Below are positions 2,383 to 12,316 of a DNA stretch of 32,000 bases, piece by piece. This DNA comes from Erysipelothrix inopinata (GTDB taxonomy: Bacteria > Bacillota_I > Bacilli_A > Erysipelotrichales > Erysipelotrichaceae). The stretch is from the NCBI RefSeq assembly GCF_014396165.1, contig NZ_CP060715.1, positions 1,950,001 to 1,982,000 on the forward strand, in the 5' to 3' direction. Made by a program: the position numbers and the translations under genes. Positions within the stretch are counted from its first letter, which is position 1. Every line of letters starts with the position of its first letter. The notes under the pieces are model-generated. The model did no database searches and was not told where the DNA came from. It saw only the letters and a list, made by a program, of their open reading frames with translations.

Positions 2383-3918
2383 TTATTGTTCAAGTCTTAA
2401 GATTGTTGCGAGAAGTGACATTGCAAATCGGGTTTTAAATACCACAAGGATTACAATATAGAAAATCAATGCAATCACAATAATTACAATGAGTGAAATC
2501 TTAGCTGGTAAGAATGCTCCCATGAGGGGTCTTAACAATAAGATAACCACTCCCATCAAAATAGAACTTAAGAGAATTTTTAAGAAGTCAGAACGAATGT
2601 ACTTCAAGTACAATTTACCGACATGTTTCTTCATTGTTTTATAAAGCGGTATACATGTTACGGTTGCTGCTACAACATAGGCTAGCGACAACCCTGATAG
2701 TCCGTGCCCAAATGGCATCAAGAGATTACCGAACAAGAACATTAAACCAATGAAAACGATTGAAAATAGAATGTGACTCTTAACCGGATTCTTCATATCT
2801 TGATAAGCAAAGTGTATACGGATCATAAGATCACGCATTGCTTGCGAAAATAGAACCAAAGAGTAACAGACAAATACCGGAACAATCGCTTTTATATCAG
2901 CAGGTGTCGTTGCATTTCTTAGGTAAACAAATGACACAATTTCATTTGCTAGTGTTATAAATCCAACAACAGCTGGGAAAACAAATAATGAAATCATTAA
3001 GATTGCTTCATTAATTGATTTATTTAACATCTTGTTATTGCCATCAACTACATTCTTTGCAATAGTTGGAAATGTAACTTGAAGAATTGAGACAAGGAAT
3101 ATTCCTTGAACAAAACCCACAAGCTTTGTAGCAGATGTCATATATACATAACCTTTATCACCATCGGGATAGAAGAAGGTCGATAAGTTTTTCATAATAA
3201 CATCATTCAATTGACCTAGGAATGATGATAAGAAGAGTGGTAAAGCAAGTGCCATCATGATTCGAAGATCTTGATCTTTAAAATCAATAACCGCTGTATA
3301 CTTGAAACCATTTTTCTTCATGGCATATAAGATTAACCCCGCTTGTAAAATGAACCCAAAGAGTTGAGCATAAGCAAGTACTTGTAAGTTGCCAGATTTA
3401 CTACTGAGGAAAATACCAATGATAACAACAATGTTGATCGGTATTCCTGCCGCAGCAGGTGCTGCAAAGCTGTTCTTAACGTTTAAGTAACCTGTACCAA
3501 GTTGGAGTAGGGCTACCGAGAATGTACCCAAGGCAAACGTTCTAACAAACGAAGCTGCATAGATGACACCTTGATCACTCAATCCACTTGCAACCATTTT
3601 TACGGCAAGTTCCGGTAAGATAAACATGAATGCTGATACCAAAGCAGCAAAGAGCATCATAATGTTCAAGACATTGGATGCAAAGCGTTCACCACGGTCT
3701 TTGTCTTCGTGCATAATGCGCGTTAACATTGGGATGATTCCCGAAATGAGGGCCGCCCCAACTACTGTCAAGATCACACTTGGGATGGAAACAGCAGCTT
3801 GATAAGCAGCAGTCTCAGCCCCAAATCCGAAGAGCGATGTTAATGTGATATCTCTAATAAATCCTAAGACCTTAGCGATAACAGCAATAAACATGACAAT
3901 AATGGTACTTTTCTTCAT
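2383..3918 (-). CDS. murJ: Lipid II flippase MurJ (MviN family)
   Basis: 511 aa polytopic membrane protein with a MurJ-like N-terminus (VIAKVLGFIRDITLTSLFG). It sits directly after murB. Confidence 0.9.
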   Translation of the reverse strand: MKKSTIIVMFIAVIAKVLGFIRDITLTSLFGFGAETAAYQAAVSIPSVILTVVGAALISGIIPMLTRIMHEDKDRGERFASNVLNIMMLFAALVSAFMFILPELAVKMVASGLSDQGVIYAASFVRTFALGTFSVALLQLGTGYLNVKNSFAAPAAAGIPINIVVIIGIFLSSKSGNLQVLAYAQLFGFILQAGLILYAMKKNGFKYTAVIDFKDQDLRIMMALALPLFLSSFLGQLNDVIMKNLSTFFYPDGDKGYVYMTSATKLVGFVQGIFLVSILQVTFPTIAKNVVDGNNKMLNKSINEAILMISLFVFPAVVGFITLANEIVSFVYLRNATTPADIKAIVPVFVCYSLVLFSQAMRDLMIRIHFAYQDMKNPVKSHILFSIVFIGLMFLFGNLLMPFGHGLSGLSLAYVVAATVTCIPLYKTMKKHVGKLYLKYIRSDFLKILLSSILMGVVILLLRPLMGAFLPAKISLIVIIVIALIFYIVILVVFKTRFAMSLLATILRLEQ

Positions 3919-3919
3919 A

Positions 3920-4801
3920 TTAGATTACTTTCCATTCTAATTCGAGTTCGACATCAAACTCTTCAGAAACTCTCTTTTTACATTCGTTAATAACCGCATG
4001 CATATCATGAACACTTGCATTACCTGTGTTCACAATAAAGCCAGGATGTTTTTCAGATACCATAGCATCCCCAACTTTATAACCACGGAGGTTTACAGTA
4101 TCGAATAACTTCCAAACATAAAGTGAGTTTCCTTCTTTATCCTTTGGACGTTTGAAGACACTTCCTGCATTTGCATAATTTCGGGGTTGTTTAACATAAC
4201 GTTCATGGCGATAATAAAGCATTTTTTCAAGTGCCTCGTTGTAATCACCTGGCAATGTTTTTAAACCAGCACCCAATACATAAACAGGCATTTCATTTAA
4301 GCGTGAATAACGATATCCGAAGAATCCTTCATCAGGAACAACACGTTCAATTTGCTCTGTCTCATAGTTATAGACATCAATCCATTTTACATATTGTCCA
4401 ATTGAATATTGCCATTGTCCGGCATTCATGATGAGTGCACCACCAATAGTTCCTGGAATATCTTCTAAGAATTCCATTTCTCCTAATGACTGTTCACACG
4501 CAAACCAAGATAAGCGATTTAAACGAGCACCACTTTCCACAACAATTTCATTATTTTTGATCTCAATATTGTTTAAAAGAACGGTTACGATGAAGACAGT
4601 GTCATCGCCATAACTATCTTGTGAGAACACAATATTAGATCCATTTCCAATAATAACTATTTTTCTATCTTTATATTCTTTTAATGCATCAGCAAATCCT
4701 TGTAATGTATGCGGTAAAACAATTGTTTCCGCCATTACGTCTAATCTTAATGTATTATAACGCTTCAATGAAGCATTATTCATCACGAAATATTCTTTCA
4801 T
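3920..4801 (-). CDS. murB: UDP-N-acetylenolpyruvoylglucosamine reductase MurB
   Basis: 293 aa. FAD-binding region IIGNGSNIVF and the C-terminal NAGSVFKRP and GFIVNTGNA motifs are typical of MurB. RBS AAAGGAG. Confidence 0.95.
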   Translation of the reverse strand: MKEYFVMNNASLKRYNTLRLDVMAETIVLPHTLQGFADALKEYKDRKIVIIGNGSNIVFSQDSYGDDTVFIVTVLLNNIEIKNNEIVVESGARLNRLSWFACEQSLGEMEFLEDIPGTIGGALIMNAGQWQYSIGQYVKWIDVYNYETEQIERVVPDEGFFGYRYSRLNEMPVYVLGAGLKTLPGDYNEALEKMLYYRHERYVKQPRNYANAGSVFKRPKDKEGNSLYVWKLFDTVNLRGYKVGDAMVSEKHPGFIVNTGNASVHDMHAVINECKKRVSEEFDVELELEWKVI

Positions 4802-7695: not shown

Positions 7696-7723
7696 ACTCT
7701 CACCTACTTTTTAACGCTACTTA

Positions 7724-7752
7724 ATTATAGAGAAAATGATTTCGATTGTCAA
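7724..7752 (-). promoter_or_regulatory. Consensus sigma-A promoter of yceD-rpmF
   Basis: The minus strand reads TTGACA-17 nt-TATAAT (TGTCAA at 7747-7752 and ATTATA at 7724-7729 on +). Confidence 0.7.
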
Positions 7753-7824
7753 ACGAAATAGCCAATTTAAAGTGGGATTTTCTTAGGAATTGAATTGCAT
7801 GCAAACAAAAAGAAAAAAGGCGAT

Positions 7825-7865
7825 TGAACTGCTCCCTGTCAAGTAGACAGGTGAAATAAATAAAA
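7825..7865. repeat. IS terminal inverted repeat (orfB-proximal end)
   Basis: TGAACTGCTCCCTGTCAAGTAGACAGGTGAAATAAATAAAA matches the reverse complement of 9602-9642. Confidence 0.8.
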
Positions 7866-7906
7866 TACCCAAGATGATTTATCGCTTTACGATGAATCAT
7901 CTTTTC

Positions 7907-8854
7907 TTATGCTACAGTCGCCTGCATTTGCTTTTCTCTAATGTTTGACCAATAAGCTTCAATTTTCTTGTTGGTTGGAATTGAATAACTTATAGGTGTC
8001 TCTGATCCTAATGCTTCAGTTCGAACCATCATTGGTGTTTTGTTTTTAAATCGTTTTTGAAGTCTCTTGTTGTTATAAAAATCAATATACGCATCAATTG
8101 CTTTCTTTAACTCGCTTTTAGTATTGAATTCATTAGGATAGTACATTTCTGATTTGATAGTTCCCCAGAATCCTTCCATAGGACCATTATCAATACAGTG
8201 TCCCACTCTAGACATACTTTGTATCATTCCTTGATCTTCTAGCTGTTTTCTAAATACCCTACTTGTATATTGGAATCCTCGGTCACTGTGAAATAAAGGC
8301 TTTGCCTCTGGATATCTCGTGATAGCTTTATGATAAGTATCAAACACAAGTTGATTATTGTTACGATCACTTATGTGGTACGCCACAATACTCAAATCAT
8401 AAAGATCAATAATCGCACTGAGATACAGCTTCTTACCTGAACCTTTAATCTTAAATTCTGTGACATCTGTCAACCATTTTTCATTTGGTCTAGAAGCAAA
8501 GAAATTACGATTTAAAATATTTTCAGCTGTGATTTCAGGAGTGCTTCGTGAATACTTTTTAGACTTTTGACGAATCACTGATTTCACACCCAGCATCTTC
8601 ATGAGTCTATGAATCCTCTTTGGGTTATAATGAACTCTATTAAGTTCATTAATCCAATCTGTCATTCGTCGATAACCTAAGATATGTCCAAACATTTCAT
8701 CATAATCAAGAATGAGATTACAAAGCTCATGATTCTCAATTTCATTGCTTGTTTCAACACGGTGCGTCCATTTATAATAACTGCTTCTTGCGATTTTAAG
8801 TACCTTACACATCCATTGAATGCTCCAACCATGTTTATAATGAAGTTCTTGCAC
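7907..8854 (-). CDS. IS3-family transposase OrfB (DDE/rve integrase core)
   Basis: WLTDVTEF, HSDRGFQYTS and NGPMEGFWGTIKSE contain the D, D and E residues. The reading frame stays open upstream of the listed GTG start as far as the slippery site. Confidence 0.9.
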   Translation of the reverse strand: MQELHYKHGWSIQWMCKVLKIARSSYYKWTHRVETSNEIENHELCNLILDYDEMFGHILGYRRMTDWINELNRVHYNPKRIHRLMKMLGVKSVIRQKSKKYSRSTPEITAENILNRNFFASRPNEKWLTDVTEFKIKGSGKKLYLSAIIDLYDLSIVAYHISDRNNNQLVFDTYHKAITRYPEAKPLFHSDRGFQYTSRVFRKQLEDQGMIQSMSRVGHCIDNGPMEGFWGTIKSEMYYPNEFNTKSELKKAIDAYIDFYNNKRLQKRFKNKTPMMVRTEALGSETPISYSIPTNKKIEAYWSNIREKQMQATVA

Positions 8855-8865
8855 GGCAAGATACT

Positions 8866-9570
8866 TTACTTCTTGTTTTGCTTTGGAGAATATCGCCGCC
8901 CTTCTATTTCCTTCACTTTTTTTAATAGAATATTCTCACGTTCTTTCAGTTCAAGTTCTCTTTCGAGTTGTTTGATTTTACGTTCTAAACGTTCTTCATT
9001 ACTGAGTTGATCTTCTTGTTTTCGTTTGCCACGTTTATCAAGAAGCCCTTCATATCCTATCTCGTTATATTTTTGAACCCACTGGTAAACTTGAGCATAG
9101 GAAAGACCATAGAGCTCGGCGGTTCCCTTATAATCGTAGTCATGTTCAATACAATGTGCGACAATTTCTTGACGTTCTTCAATCGTTGTTTTTCTACCTT
9201 TTGTCATATAGACTTCTCCTTTAGGATCGTAATCCTTTATGGTTTCAAGTCTATTATACTTGTTTATCCATCCACGCAAAACCTCATCGGAACTTATATC
9301 GTATTTGATAATAATATCTGCGAGAGAACCTAGTCCTTCAAGGTAATCTTGAATAGCAGATTCCTTAAGTTCTTTCGAATAACTTTTATTTCGAGGTTTA
9401 TATGAGAATGCTTCAACACCGACGATTTGGTATTTTTTCACCCATCTACGCAATGTCCCAGGATTAATCGATAATTCTTGGGATATTTCCATTGCACCTT
9501 TTATGCCGTTCAAATATTCTTTAACTACTTGTTCTTTTATTTCCGCTGGATATTTATTCTTTCTACCCAT
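8866..9570 (-). CDS. IS3-family transposase OrfA (HTH domains plus leucine-zipper-like C-terminus)
   Basis: 234 aa with repeated HTH segments and a charged coiled coil (ERLERKIKQLERELELKEREN). RBS AAAGGAGGAG. Confidence 0.9.
   Translation of the reverse strand: MGRKNKYPAEIKEQVVKEYLNGIKGAMEISQELSINPGTLRRWVKKYQIVGVEAFSYKPRNKSYSKELKESAIQDYLEGLGSLADIIIKYDISSDEVLRGWINKYNRLETIKDYDPKGEVYMTKGRKTTIEERQEIVAHCIEHDYDYKGTAELYGLSYAQVYQWVQKYNEIGYEGLLDKRGKRKQEDQLSNEERLERKIKQLERELELKERENILLKKVKEIEGRRYSPKQNKK
8916..8923 (-). other. Programmed -1 ribosomal frameshift site A-AAA-AAG joining OrfA to OrfB
   Basis: The minus strand reads TTAAAAAAAGTG. Shifting -1 here gives ...KKSEGNRRAAIFSKAKQEVKYLAVQELHYKHGW, which runs into the OrfB frame. 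Confidence 0.75.
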
Positions 9571-9601
9571 AGAAAAAGCTCCTCCTTTTTGTAGTACCCG
9601 T

Positions 9602-9642
9602 TTTTATTTATTTCGGGTGTCTACTTTAAGGGGAGCTTATCA
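9602..9642. repeat. IS terminal inverted repeat (orfA-proximal end)
   Basis: The reverse complement reads TGATAAGCTCCCCTTAAAGTAGACACCCGAAATAAATAAAA. Confidence 0.8.
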
Positions 9643-9847
9643 GATTATAAGTTGCCTTTTTTCTTTTAAGGGAAAGATTAATTTATATATGATAAGGATT
9701 AATATGGGGTATGAATTCTTTAAGGAGAAGAGTTTATCATATGCGCAAGAGATGGGGTCCTCTTACAATGAATACTATACAACTTAATTATGGTAGAACA
9801 TTGCTCTCTTCGTGGTAGATTATGGGAACTCATCTCCCGAACTCCAG
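9643..9847. repeat. Structured tandem repeat unit U1 (its terminator hairpin is split by the IS; the first 14 nt are at 7811-7824)
   Basis: Joining 7811-7824 to 9646 onward restores AAAAAAGGCgattataagttGCCTTTTTT, which corresponds to the GGCC hairpins of the other units. The rest aligns with U2, U4 and U5. Confidence 0.85.
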
Positions 9848-10060
9848 AAAAAAAAGGCCATTATAGCGGCCTCAATTTTTTAGGGAAAGTTTATATGATA
9901 AGTTTCATATGGGGTATGAATCTTTTAGGAGAAGAGTTTATCATATGCGCAAGAGATGGGGTCCTCTTACAATGAATACTATACAACTTAATTATGGTAG
10001 AATATTGCTCTCTTAATGGTATATTGTGGGAATGATATAAATATTACAGTTTCACAATCT
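9848..10060. repeat. Structured tandem repeat unit U2
   Basis: A8-GGCC(9856-9859)-attatagc-GGCC(9868-9871)-TCAATTTTTT, then the conserved core. The last ~45 nt differ from U1/U4/U5. Confidence 0.9.
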
Positions 10061-10253
10061 AAAAAAGGCCCATTATTATAGAGGCCTTTATTTAGGGGAA
10101 AAATTATTTATATGATAAATATTCATAAGGGGCTATGAATATCTTTTTAGGAGAAGAGTTTATCATATGTGCAAGAGTCATATCCCTCTTACACTTAATA
10201 ATATACGCTTCTTGTGTGTAATTAATGCGATAAGAAAATGTTAGATTATGGGA
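10061..10253. repeat. Structured tandem repeat unit U3 (diverged copy that abuts the nucleotidyltransferase stop codon)
   Basis: AGGCC(10066-10070)...GGCCT(10083-10087) hairpin. Same stem architecture as the other units with compensatory changes. It ends TGTTAGATTATGGGA and overlaps the last 8 nt of CDS 10246-10791. Confidence 0.8.
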
Positions 10254-10791
10254 GTATCACTAATTCTTTCCATTTTTCTTCCCACTTCTTTGTTTTTACT
10301 CGTTTTAGGAATACTTCGTGCTTACCCGATCCAACTTTATACTCTGGTGTTGGCGAAATAACTAAATTTAATAAGTCTTCCACACCATGAGGTGCAATAA
10401 CTTCCACTTTCCCTTCACGGATTCGTGCTGCAATTGCAGTACATGTTTCTGGAAATGCACCAATTGCATCCTCCACTGATATGAACGGATCTCTGTATCC
10501 ATTATAGAGATGCATGTGACACTCATTTTTGACTTCCCAGTCGTATTGTGGATATTCGCTAAGAAATCTCTCTTGGATCTCTAATGTTTCTTCATAGCTA
10601 ACAGATGGATCAAAGAAAACGACATCGACATCAGAAATGATTTCAAATTGATGATGACACAGGGTATCCCAAATATAATTTCGTATTGTACCTGCACAGA
10701 GACACCCTTGCTTCAAATCAAATTTTTCAACGATACGAAGTATCGCCATAATCTCATCGTTATTTTCAATCAAACCAACAATTCTATCCAT
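10246..10791 (-). CDS. Nucleotidyltransferase family protein (Pol-beta fold, DUF925/NTP_transf_6-like), function unknown
   Basis: CAGTIRNYIWD...SDVDVVFFD fits the G[SG]-x(n)-DxD NTase motif. WEVKNECHMHLYN resembles the VKNQARMH signature I recall for the DUF925 family. RBS AGGAGG. Confidence 0.65.
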   Translation of the reverse strand: MDRIVGLIENNDEIMAILRIVEKFDLKQGCLCAGTIRNYIWDTLCHHQFEIISDVDVVFFDPSVSYEETLEIQERFLSEYPQYDWEVKNECHMHLYNGYRDPFISVEDAIGAFPETCTAIAARIREGKVEVIAPHGVEDLLNLVISPTPEYKVGSGKHEVFLKRVKTKKWEEKWKELVILP

Positions 10792-10811
10792 CGCAAATTC
10801 CTCCTGTCACA

Positions 10812-10840
10812 ATCTTAACTTTGCGAACAACTTAATGCAA
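10812..10840 (-). promoter_or_regulatory. Sigma-A-type promoter of the nucleotidyltransferase gene
   Basis: The minus strand reads TTGCAT-17 nt-TAAGAT, about 20 nt upstream of the AGGAGG RBS and directly downstream of the U4 terminator hairpin. Confidence 0.55.
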
Positions 10841-10843
10841 GCG

Positions 10844-11047
10844 AAAAAAAAGGCCATTATAGTGGCCTCAATTTTTAGGGAAAGTTTATATGATAAGAAT
10901 TCATATGGGGTATGAATCTTTTAGGAGAAGAGTTTATCATATGCGCAAGAGATGGGGTCCTCTTACAATGAATACTATACAACTTAATTATGGTAGAACA
11001 TTGCCCTCTTCGTGGTAGATTATGGGAACTCATCTCATGAACTCCAG
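10844..11047. repeat. Structured tandem repeat unit U4
   Basis: 204 bp. Differs from U5 at about 5 positions by eye. Confidence 0.9.
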
Positions 11048-11251
11048 AAAAAAAAGGCCATTATAGCGGCCTTAACTTTTAGGGAAAGTTTATATGATAA
11101 GAATTCATATGGGGTATGAATCTTTTAGGAGAAGAGTTTATCATATGCGCAAGAGATGGGGTCCTCTTACAATGAATACTATACAACTTAATTATGGTAG
11201 AACATTGCTCTCTTCGTGGTAGATTATGGGAACTCATCTCATGAACTCCAG
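11048..11251. repeat. Structured tandem repeat unit U5 (used here as the reference copy)
   Basis: Hairpin GGCC 11056-11059 / 11068-11071. Long stem ATATGATAA 11092-11100 / TTATCATAT 11138-11146. Inner hairpin TTCATA-tgggg-TATGAA 11104-11120. Hairpin AAGAG-atggggtc-CTCTT 11151-11168. TGGTAGA boxes at 11195 and 11217. Confidence 0.9.
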
Positions 11252-11434
11252 AAAAAAAAGGCCATTATAGCGGCCTCAATTTTTTAGGGAAAGTTTATAT
11301 GATAAGTTTCATATGGGGTATGAATCTTTTAGGAGAAGAGTTTATCATATTTATAAGAGGATCTGCCTCTTACATGTATAACTATACATAATTAATATGT
11401 TAGAACATCTTCGAATTAATGTTAGATTATGGGA
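11252..11434. repeat. Structured tandem repeat unit U6 (abuts the xerC stop codon; its first half matches U2, its second half is diverged)
   Basis: 11252-11350 reads identically to 9848-9946 by eye, then diverges. It ends TGTTAGATTATGGGA immediately before the xerC stop at 11435. Confidence 0.85.
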
Positions 11435-12316
11435 TTAATCAAGAGGTAGATTTTTCATGGCCTCATCATAAGCATCTTTAATTCTTTTCATACTTACATG
11501 CGTATAGATCTGAGTGGTGCTTAACGATTCATGTCCAAGTAGTTCTTGAACAATTCTCAAGCTTGCCCCATTATCTAGAAGATGTGTTGCAAAGCTATGC
11601 CTTAGCATATGAGGATGTACATTTATTTTTAATCCAGCTTTCTCTGATTGTTTTTCTAGAATATATTGAACTCCGCGCGTTGTCAAAGGTTTTCCTTGTC
11701 CATTCACAAAAACAAAATCTTCGCCTGTTTTAGAAAGTTTGGGACGAACAACATTCAGATAATTCATGAGTTTCGGATTCAAGGCGTCATAGTAGAACAA
11801 TATCCGCTCTTTATTCCCCTTACCGATAACTCTTACGACTCTCTCGCTAGTATCAATGTCTTTACACTTAAGATTGCATACTTCGCTTACACGAAGCCCA
11901 CAGGCGTACATAAGCTCAATTAAAATCTGATTACGAATTCCTAAATTAGAGTCATCACAACTTAATAGTAGTTTCTCGATTTCATCAAACATTAAAAACT
12001 GTGGCAACTTGCGACTTTGCTTCCGAATTTTAATATGAATAAATGGGTTTGCTAAAGCGCCATAATTTTGTTGCAAAAATTTATAAAAAGATCGCAGCGA
12101 GGAAATTTTACGGGCAACACTGGCTGATGACAATCCTGATTCATACAGTTCATTTAAATACGAGTATGCTAGTTTGTCATCGACTTCTAGAACATTATGC
12201 GAACCAATAAATTCTAAAAACTGAGACACATCTCGATAATAAGCATCGGCAGTATGTTCTGATGATGTATTGGTAATCGCAATATGTCTCATGAATTCTT
12301 TAAGATATTGTGTCAA
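11435..12316 (-). CDS. xerC: Tyrosine recombinase XerC (CodV-type); start probably TTG at 12316
   Basis: Catalytic region LRHSFATHLLDNGASLRIVQELLGHESLSTTQIYTHV (R..HxxR..Y). Sits after topA-trmFO as in Bacillus. The ORF-track ATG at 12400 would overlap trmFO by 100 nt, whereas the TTG (MTQYLKEF...) has AAGGAA upstream. Confidence 0.85.
   Translation of the reverse strand: MTQYLKEFMRHIAITNTSSEHTADAYYRDVSQFLEFIGSHNVLEVDDKLAYSYLNELYESGLSSASVARKISSLRSFYKFLQQNYGALANPFIHIKIRKQSRKLPQFLMFDEIEKLLLSCDDSNLGIRNQILIELMYACGLRVSEVCNLKCKDIDTSERVVRVIGKGNKERILFYYDALNPKLMNYLNVVRPKLSKTGEDFVFVNGQGKPLTTRGVQYILEKQSEKAGLKINVHPHMLRHSFATHLLDNGASLRIVQELLGHESLSTTQIYTHVSMKRIKDAYDEAMKNLPLD

Follow-up and report, generated by a model that had tools for sequence, protein, structure and literature searches.

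The 32-kb window analysed here (NZ_CP060715.1, positions 1,950,001-1,982,000, Erysipelothrix inopinata) raises the question of what is encoded by a unit of about 204 bp that repeat finding and MAFFT alignment detected in six copies (U1 to U6) next to the gene for an xerC-type tyrosine recombinase. Four of the six copies are near-identical (94-98%) and represent recent duplicates, the other two are diverged, and Tandem Repeats Finder (TRF) reported 2.5 tandem copies with 97% identity. An earlier note on one of these copies (U5), made from the letters alone, had read the minus strand of the window, which is the strand of xerC, as encoding a multicopy small RNA (sRNA) directed against Shine-Dalgarno (SD) sequences. 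We propose that each unit is very probably a gene for a structured non-coding RNA, the six forming a family on the minus strand, and that this RNA probably acts, as far as its motifs tell, as an sRNA that base-pairs with SD regions. The element is in effect a new RNA family of a known kind, present in Erysipelothrix and relatives.

To describe the anatomy of the unit, we used U5 as the reference copy (Table 1). On the plus strand, the palindromes described in the earlier note were all found in place: a long-range stem formed by ATATGATAA and TTATCATAT (the two arms of P2 in Table 1), an inner hairpin TTCATA-tgggg-TATGAA at 11104-11120, TTTTAGGAGAAGAG at 11123-11136, and a second hairpin AAGAG-atggggtc-CTCTT at 11151-11168. 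The GGCC hairpin with A8/T8 carries its T8 on the minus strand, which is the terminator orientation. Read as RNA, the unit is predicted to fold into a 5' hairpin (H1) and a long-range stem (P2) around the unpaired CUUCUCCU (C/U-rich motif 1). Most lineages would also form an inner hairpin (H3), whose loop is CCCC, within P2; 3' of P2, an unpaired (U)CUUUCCC(C) (C/U-rich motif 2) would be followed by a Rho-independent terminator. Each unit would thereby be an independent minus-strand gene with an RNA of about 123 nt (132 nt in U3), whose transcription would start about 7 nt after a TAnnnT -10 box with the assistance of an activator. The distance from GUAAG, the first letters of H1, to the U run is 122-132 nt in the copies of the window, in agreement with the RNA of about 125 nt suggested before. 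The terminators of all homologues consist of a hairpin and a U run, with differing sequences and energies of -5.7 to -18.5 kcal/mol, and eight terminator-like sites were found in the window compared to 1.3 expected, with the T8-tailed version on the minus strand.

The differences among the six copies are real. U3 has a lengthened inner hairpin, the loop of the second hairpin is changed in U3 and U6, and a 1-nt indel separates U2 and U6 from U4 and U5. These variants had been taken as three lines of covariation, but on their own they are weak, because the copies share invariant stems and differ only in loops and at stem ends, and because four of them are recent duplicates; the structural evidence within the window is thin. 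Only with homologues of other species included does the covariation become statistically meaningful.

The invariant 20-mer AGGAGAAGAGTTTATCATAT, scanned against one genome per species, returned one organism, an Erysipelothrix sp. metagenome-assembled genome (MAG) with all four exact matches in one locus, and two chance matches. The locus of this MAG reads xerC, U6, U5, a 100-N gap, U4, NTP_transf_6, U3, U2, U1, yceD-rpmF, with no insertion sequence (IS); the scaffold gap (L003, 7076-7175) falls within the array. The 285-aa XerC of the window is present exactly in several short-read assemblies, all of which (L005-L009) break about 114 nt into the array, inside U6. XerC orthologues of named species are only 57-69% identical to it, which sets the window apart as an Erysipelothrix lineage of its own. 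Directly after xerC, a single homologous element was found in E. tonsillarum, E. amsterdamensis, E. larvae, E. urinaevulpis and two uncultured lineages (L010 and L017), and strain HDW6C carries two diverged copies, followed by an NTP_transf_6 gene. In one further Erysipelothrix sp. MAG (L018, XerC 57% identical), xerC and yceD are separated by only 122 nt (3897-4020), and the element is missing from this locus; therefore, the RNA gene is not universal in the genus. Additionally, a pattern scan of metagenomes identified a homologue between a gene for an S-adenosylmethionine (SAM) hydrolase (PF01887) and DUF1836-DegV, a synteny that is kept in HGW-Firmicutes-20-like groundwater MAGs with one copy per locus (L019 1520-1609, L020 1249-1338, L025-L029 3905-3994, L030 1134-1224). 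This homologue has no inner hairpin, both C/U-rich motifs are intact, and its -10 box is of the extended form TGnTATATT. Three of the six matches of the pattern scan (L022-L024) were dismissed as chance. We conclude from the second gene context that the element is an autonomous gene and not an appendage of xerC, and from the groundwater MAGs that the family reaches beyond the named Erysipelothrix species.

With these homologues, the proposed structure could be compared across lineages. When 17 distinct units were aligned by hand with regard to structure (A3, with N as padding), 87.8% of the pair cells were standard pairs, compared to 75.3% in column-shuffled alignments, and 19 of 28 pairs changed on both sides (7.7 when shuffled). 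None of 500 shuffles matched any of the five measures, and sliding the partner columns by 1-3 positions as a control gave only 29-45% pairing. The strongest helix was P2, in which all nine pairs covary. At least six versions of P2 exist with the pairing kept: AUAUGAUAA/UUAUCAUAU in the lineage of the window, and further GUAUGAU/AUCAUAC, CAUAAUAAUCG/CGAUUAUUAUG, CUGGAUAAUAAC/GUUAUUAUGCAG, GCAGUCUAUU/AAUAGA-AU-CUGC and CUGUAUGG/CCAUACAG. H1 likewise occurs in compensatory versions (GUAAGAGG/CCUCUUAU, GUAAGUUA/UAACUUAC and GCAAGA/UCUUGC), and six pairs of H3 show changes on both sides in the hand alignment. A covariance model built on A3 (R1) matched the window exactly six times, on the minus strand only, and retrieved every homologue in the other loci; it detected no additional copy in the rest of the window or in the flanking sequence fetched with the other loci. 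In the alignment made by R1 (A5, 22 sequences), 92.9% of the cells were paired and 19 pairs covaried, and RNAalifold recovered H1 and P2 from A5 by itself. The covariation check on homologues that had been suggested in the earlier note is positive by A3, by A5 and by RNAalifold on A5.

The core UCUCC of motif 1 is invariant and unpaired in 22 of 22 aligned homologues, and UUUCCC of motif 2 is invariant in all homologues, unpaired within (U)CUUUCCC(C). All four C/U-rich motifs that the earlier note had listed are present in U5, but only these two are universal across the homologues. The ACCCCA loop of H1 is limited to U1, U2, U4 and U5 of the window species. H3 is cut to 4 bp in copy 1 of HDW6C and is absent in L010 and the L019 type. 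CAU stands 6-7 nt 5' of CCCC in six of ten lineages checked by eye, and the others have GAU.

The xerC strand is favoured as the RNA strand because of the terminator U runs, the -10 box at a fixed distance, the co-directional flanking genes and an excess of G.U pairs: 12 interior G.U pairs were counted, each an A.C mismatch if read on the opposite strand, compared to only 3 interior A.C cells. Nearly all genes of the window lie on this minus strand. Both strands were also inspected for coding potential, given that the units could encode small peptides, namely a 42-aa product of the plus strand preceded by the ribosome-binding site AGGGAAAG, a 25-aa MRKRW... or a 21-aa MINSSP... of the minus strand. 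The open reading frames (ORFs) of the plus strand in U4 and U5 indeed have SD-like sequences. However, the 1-nt indel shifts the frame even within the array, and no reading frame is conserved on either strand; the longest ORFs yield unrelated peptides between lineages, in which the nucleotide motifs and pairings are kept. The SD and ATG of the 42-aa ORF are merely the mirror image of motif 2 and the CAU of the RNA, and we regard a coding function as extremely unlikely. This ORF (11093-11221), with its seemingly good ribosome-binding site in U4 and U5, is conserved neither in U2 and U6 nor in other species.

The region upstream of H1 points to a promoter of its own for each unit. The TATAGT/TATATT box that the earlier note had placed about 8 nt upstream of the first minus-strand hairpin is found in six of six copies, at 7 nt. 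Across the homologues the -10 box takes the forms TATAGT, TATATT, TATACT, TATGAT, TATTCT and TATTAT, mostly preceded by TG, and is followed after 6-7 nt by GUAAG, which is replaced by GCAAG in one lineage. Two further boxes are conserved upstream (Table 1). In the upstream alignment, the distance of box 1 to the -10 box is constant for every lineage, including the locus unlinked to xerC; box 2 follows at a spacing of about 22 nt and ends 11 nt before the -10 box in every unit, and a -35 element at the position of box 2 would be too close to the -10 box. Since there is no -35 partner and the two boxes are conserved, the arrangement suggests that the RNA promoter depends on an activator, possibly a response regulator. 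Comparison of the boxes by eye with Rex, cre and Pho/CiaR-type motifs gave no convincing match.

The promoter also bears on whether the units act in cis, either as a 3' untranslated region or terminator module of xerC (and NTP_transf_6) for stability or read-through, or as a leader or attenuator for the downstream gene. Species with a single copy have no terminator between the xerC stop codon and the element, the xerC and NTP_transf_6 stop codons overlap with box 1, and NTP_transf_6 comes immediately after the terminator of a unit both in HDW6C and in the window, all of which would fit such a role. However, the -10 box stands at its fixed distance in every lineage, units located behind the strong terminator of another unit keep the full anatomy, one homologue lies behind an unrelated gene, and the downstream genes differ between species. 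Further, yceD has its own TTGACA-17-TATAAT promoter past the terminator, and no conserved alternative antiterminator pairing was found. We therefore consider a cis-acting element distinctly unlikely.

The neighbourhood of a recombinase gene could also mean that the units act as DNA, as dif-like Xer sites, as boundaries resembling integron attC sites or as a selfish dispersed repeat, with palindromes that have no role in RNA. The array abuts the tyrosine recombinase gene, and NTP_transf_6 is flanked by units like a cassette; AGTTCCCATAA resembles an XerD-arm half-site by eye (9 of 11 positions compared to B. subtilis dif, not a tool result). Yet the recombinase is the housekeeping xerC in conserved trmFO-xerC synteny and not IntI, the helices are kept through G.U pairs on one strand, and the oriented terminators are conserved, so that a function at the level of DNA is in our judgement very improbable. 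As for individual candidates, a Xer/dif site was rejected on the grounds that the unit has no 11-6-11 architecture and that there are homologue loci without a recombinase in the fetched sequence (about 3 kb on each side). An integron attC cassette was rejected given the syntenic xerC, co-oriented with the array, and the single unit without a cassette in most species. A dispersed repeat of the MITE (miniature inverted-repeat transposable element), REP (repetitive extragenic palindromic) or BOX type was rejected given the single locus in the one matching species representative and the lack of any match in plasmid and phage collections.

With regard to function, the units have the features generally expected of trans-acting sRNA genes: a conserved -10 box, a Rho-independent terminator, an intergenic location, no coding potential and covariation. 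Their invariant unpaired motifs are complementary to the SD-like sequences AGGAGAAG and GGGGAAAG, and pairing with ribosome-binding sites is proposed as the likeliest mode of action because the pyrimidine-rich motifs complement SD-type sequences. The exposed motifs would thereby pair with the ribosome-binding sites of target mRNAs and block the initiation of translation. Lineage-specific C-rich loops, CCCC in H3 and ACCCCA in H1 of U1, U2, U4 and U5, add to these anti-SD motifs. A target search with RNAduplex and the full-length RNA was discarded as meaningless because of giant loops, and no additional seed-complementary site was found in the window.

Alternatively, the structured RNA could bind or titrate a protein or the ribosome, as a decoy for a pyrimidine-binding protein or for ribosomal protein S1, or act as a sponge for another RNA. 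In distant lineages, conservation of motif 2 extends over about 21 nt (AUAUUCUUUCCCCUUAUAAAU), longer than a seed for SD pairing requires; several redundant motifs per RNA together with six gene copies would suit titration, and no specific target was found in the window. On the other hand, no partner gene is conserved beside the RNA, where the downstream neighbours vary, and we know of no protein with such pyrimidine specificity in this group. The motifs also fit the anti-SD logic that has been proven for LhrC and RsaE (PMC4132741, PMC4409812). Overall, we rate titration as rather unlikely. A more speculative variant, which we regard as decidedly improbable, is a decoy tunable by dosage, in which two invariant stretches, CUUCUCCU and UCUUUCCCC, would imitate either the RNA site of a protein or the 3' tail of 16S rRNA, which is rich in pyrimidines. 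A global RNA-binding factor or SD-rich leaders would thereby be titrated, and the array would serve as a copy-number rheostat that grows and shrinks through unequal recombination. Copy numbers between lineages are 1, 2 and 6, and the array is broken in every short-read assembly of the species.

Base pairing with SD regions would let the RNA work like LhrC, RsaE/RoxS and the streptococcal CiaR-dependent sRNAs (csRNAs), although it belongs to none of them. The multicopy LhrC sRNAs bind SD regions by UCCC motifs in loops and linkers (PMC4132741). Like LhrC1-5 of Listeria monocytogenes (PMC4132741), the units are several near-identical genes of about 110-130 nt, mostly adjacent and each with its own promoter and terminator; six were found within 1.8 kb in the window and two in HDW6C. 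As in LhrC, there are redundant UCCC-type C/U-rich motifs in hairpin loops and single strands that are complementary to SD regions (CUUCUCCU in the internal loop of P2, CCCC in the loop of H3, UUUCCC in the 3' single strand), and the promoter uses conserved upstream elements instead of a standard -35, which involve LisR in LhrC and which we infer here. The fold differs from the two simple stem-loops of LhrC in that a long-range stem surrounds a motif together with an inner hairpin, the host belongs to another class (Erysipelotrichia), and there is no homology in sequence or structure. The likeness to LhrC and RoxS stated in the earlier note consequently holds for the design and not for homology: no Rfam family matches at E<=10. 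In detail, Rfam 15 at the gathering score gave no relevant family in the window and only terminator-like noise, and a search at E<=10 with permissive filters (positions 9000-11600 and the elements of E. tonsillarum and HDW6C) gave no relevant match, including LhrC and RsaE.

Four C-rich regions are present in RsaE/RoxS, which is ResDE/SrrAB-dependent (PMC4409812). In common with RsaE/RoxS of Bacillales (PMC4409812, PMC6158497), the RNA has several conserved unpaired C-rich regions with pairing to ribosome-binding sites (proposed here), regulator boxes conserved close to the promoter (ResD/SrrA for RoxS), and conservation across a genus or family. In contrast, RsaE/RoxS is single-copy, the RNA described here fails the RsaE covariance model, and its motifs are CU-mixed (CUUCUCCU, UCUUUCCCC), unlike the CCC-rich conserved regions CRR1-4 of RoxS. 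The csRNAs, of which there are 2-6 copies, carry anti-SD and anti-AUG sequences, and their CiaR repeats stand 10 nt upstream of the -10 box (PMC3091779). Similarities to them (PMC3091779, PMC8186281) are the 2-6 related genes per genome, upstream repeat boxes that end about 10 nt before the -10 box (11 nt here) with no -35, and an unpaired anti-SD region, which is present here in all lineages. In part of the csRNA family this region also complements the start codon; here, CAU stands near CCCC in six of the ten lineages checked by eye, and GAU in the others. One csRNA gene has also been reported as truncated by an IS (PMC3091779, PMC8186281), as is U1. However, the boxes, TCACATAATCTAACAT and YTAACAYA at a spacing of about 22 nt, do not form the CiaR direct repeat (NTTAAG-N5-TTTAAG, typically TTTAAG-N5-TTTAAG), the RNA folds differently, and homology could not be detected. 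A full-text search of the literature found no description of trans-acting sRNAs in Erysipelothrix or Erysipelotrichia.

Several observations weigh against the interpretation as an anti-SD sRNA family. A scan of the window for sigma-70 consensus promoters called no promoter for any unit, because there is no -35 element, and both transcription and the exact 5' and 3' ends of the RNA are inferred from sequence features. An unguided MAFFT alignment gave zero consensus pairs with RNAalifold, because H1 and P2 were misaligned; A3 and A5 were both fitted to the proposed structure and so lean towards it, and the covariation rests on only about 8-10 independent lineages. Folding of single units compared to shuffled sequences was marginal (z of -1.97 and -1.86 on the two strands) and did not discriminate between the strands. 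H3 and its loop are not universal, the CCCC loop lacking in three lineages. Among the 31 translation-initiation regions of the window there was no outstanding target, the best seed duplex (-14.2) being within the random range, and seed duplexes with these regions were only about 2 kcal/mol better than those with random windows, which is a small general preference. The pyrimidine-rich motifs could equally be protein-binding sites.

Within the window, the gene order is dprA-topA-trmFO-xerC, the six units with the NTP_transf_6 gene among them, an IS3-family insertion and yceD; the genes surrounding the array (rnhB, dprA, topA, trmFO and xerC) are on the minus strand throughout (Table 1). The genes downstream of the element vary between lineages and include yceD-rpmF, NTP_transf_6, an ISL3 transposase, MarR and DUF1836. 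NTP_transf_6 (PF06042) is tied to the RNA genes in two lineages, lying between units in the window and after both units in HDW6C (L014, 6289-6819). Its stop codon falls within box 1 of U3, and in other species the xerC stop codon falls within box 1. The IS3-family element is bounded by imperfect inverted repeats of 35 nt and by a target duplication of 3 bp (ATC, at 7822-7824 and 9643-9645). It is inserted in the loop of the U1 terminator, the 3' half of which is displaced to 7813-7821; rejoining the flanks restores AAAAAAGGCAACUUAUAAUCGCCUUUUUU. The uninterrupted U1 terminator in the MAG has GGU/ACC in place of GGC/GCC, a compensatory change. Downstream, the terminator of an RNA gene is adjoined by the yceD-rpmF promoter and leader (window 7700-7800, minus strand; L002 590-650; L011 6240-6290), a near-consensus TTGACA-17-TATAAT followed by TAAGTAGCGTTAAA[A/G]AGTAGG[G]TGAGAGTATG that is highly conserved across species.

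Table 1. Positions of the array, its units, the elements of the reference copy U5 and neighbouring genes in the window (minus-strand elements are written as read on that strand)
Feature	Position	Strand	Basis or remark
Whole array U1-U6, split by one protein-coding gene	9643-11434	-	Repeats, TRF, covariance model R1
Unit U1	about 9643-9846
Unit U2	9847-10058
Unit U3	10059-10245
Unit U4	10843-11046
Unit U5	11047-11250		Studied stretch 11048-11251
Unit U6	11251-11434
U1 predicted RNA, terminator loop split by IS	9643-9766	-	cmsearch 73.6 bits
U2 predicted RNA, 123 nt	9848-9970	-	cmsearch 58.7 bits
U3 predicted RNA, 132 nt, most divergent copy, H3 lengthened to 9 bp	10061-10192	-	cmsearch 72.7 bits
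U4 predicted RNA, 123 nt	10844-10966	-	cmsearch 58.3 bits
U5 predicted RNA, 123 nt, reference copy	11048-11170	-	cmsearch 55.9 bits
U6 predicted RNA, 122 nt	11252-11373	-	cmsearch 55.5 bits
U6 promoter region, directly after xerC stop codon	11374-11434	-
U5 upstream box 1 TTCCCATAATCTACC, family consensus TCACATAATCTAACAT	11218-11233	-	Fixed distance from -10 box
U5 upstream box 2 TTCTACCATA, consensus YTAACAYA	11193-11202	-	Upstream alignment
U5 -10 box TATAGT, 7 nt before GUAAG of H1	11178-11183	-	TAnnnT in every homologue
U5 predicted H1, 5' hairpin GUAAGAGG-ACCCCA-UCUCUUGC	11149-11170	-	91.9% of cells paired; recovered by RNAalifold
U5 predicted P2 5' arm AUAUGAUAA, long-range stem	11138-11146	-	Nine covarying pairs; 94.8% of cells paired
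U5 C/U-rich motif 1 CUUCUCCU, unpaired in P2 loop, complementary to AGGAGAAG	11127-11134	-
U5 predicted H3, inner hairpin AG-AUUCAUA-CCCCA-UAUGAAU-UC, C-rich loop	11101-11123	-	90.4% of cells paired
U5 predicted P2 3' arm UUAUCAUAU	11092-11100	-	Covariation, RNAalifold
U5 C/U-rich motif 2 CUUUCCCU, unpaired between P2 and terminator	11081-11088	-
U5 predicted intrinsic terminator AAGGCCG-CUAUAA-UGGCCUU and U run	11048-11073	-	Terminator scan
xerC-type tyrosine recombinase gene, conserved upstream neighbour in Erysipelothrix	11435-12292	-	Pfam Phage_integrase; synteny across species
NTP_transf_6 nucleotidyltransferase gene between U4 and U3	10246-10791	-	Pfam PF06042, E=2e-46
IS3-family insertion sequence, not part of the RNA genes, truncates U1	7825-9642	-	Pfam HTH_Tnp_1 and rve (two ORFs)

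Comparison of the loci indicates that one copy 3' of xerC is the ancestral state in the genus and that the six copies of E. inopinata arose through tandem duplication. The amplification to six presumably lifts the dosage of the RNA, and it may diversify the seed loops, because the ACCCCA loop of H1 is confined to the amplified type. The element provides a candidate sRNA with a clear anatomy, a fold supported by covariation, obvious seed motifs and a conserved, probably activator-dependent promoter, in a genus of animal and zoonotic pathogens in which a single-copy species (E. tonsillarum) would be genetically easy to test. The family would be a further independent example of the rule in low-GC Gram-positive bacteria that C/U-rich loops target SD sequences, and of sRNA genes that are amplified into tandem families. 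With six copies compared to a single-copy ancestral state, it represents a clear case of sRNA gene-family expansion. Short-read assemblies and MAGs systematically collapse or break such arrays, and multicopy sRNAs are therefore likely to be under-counted.

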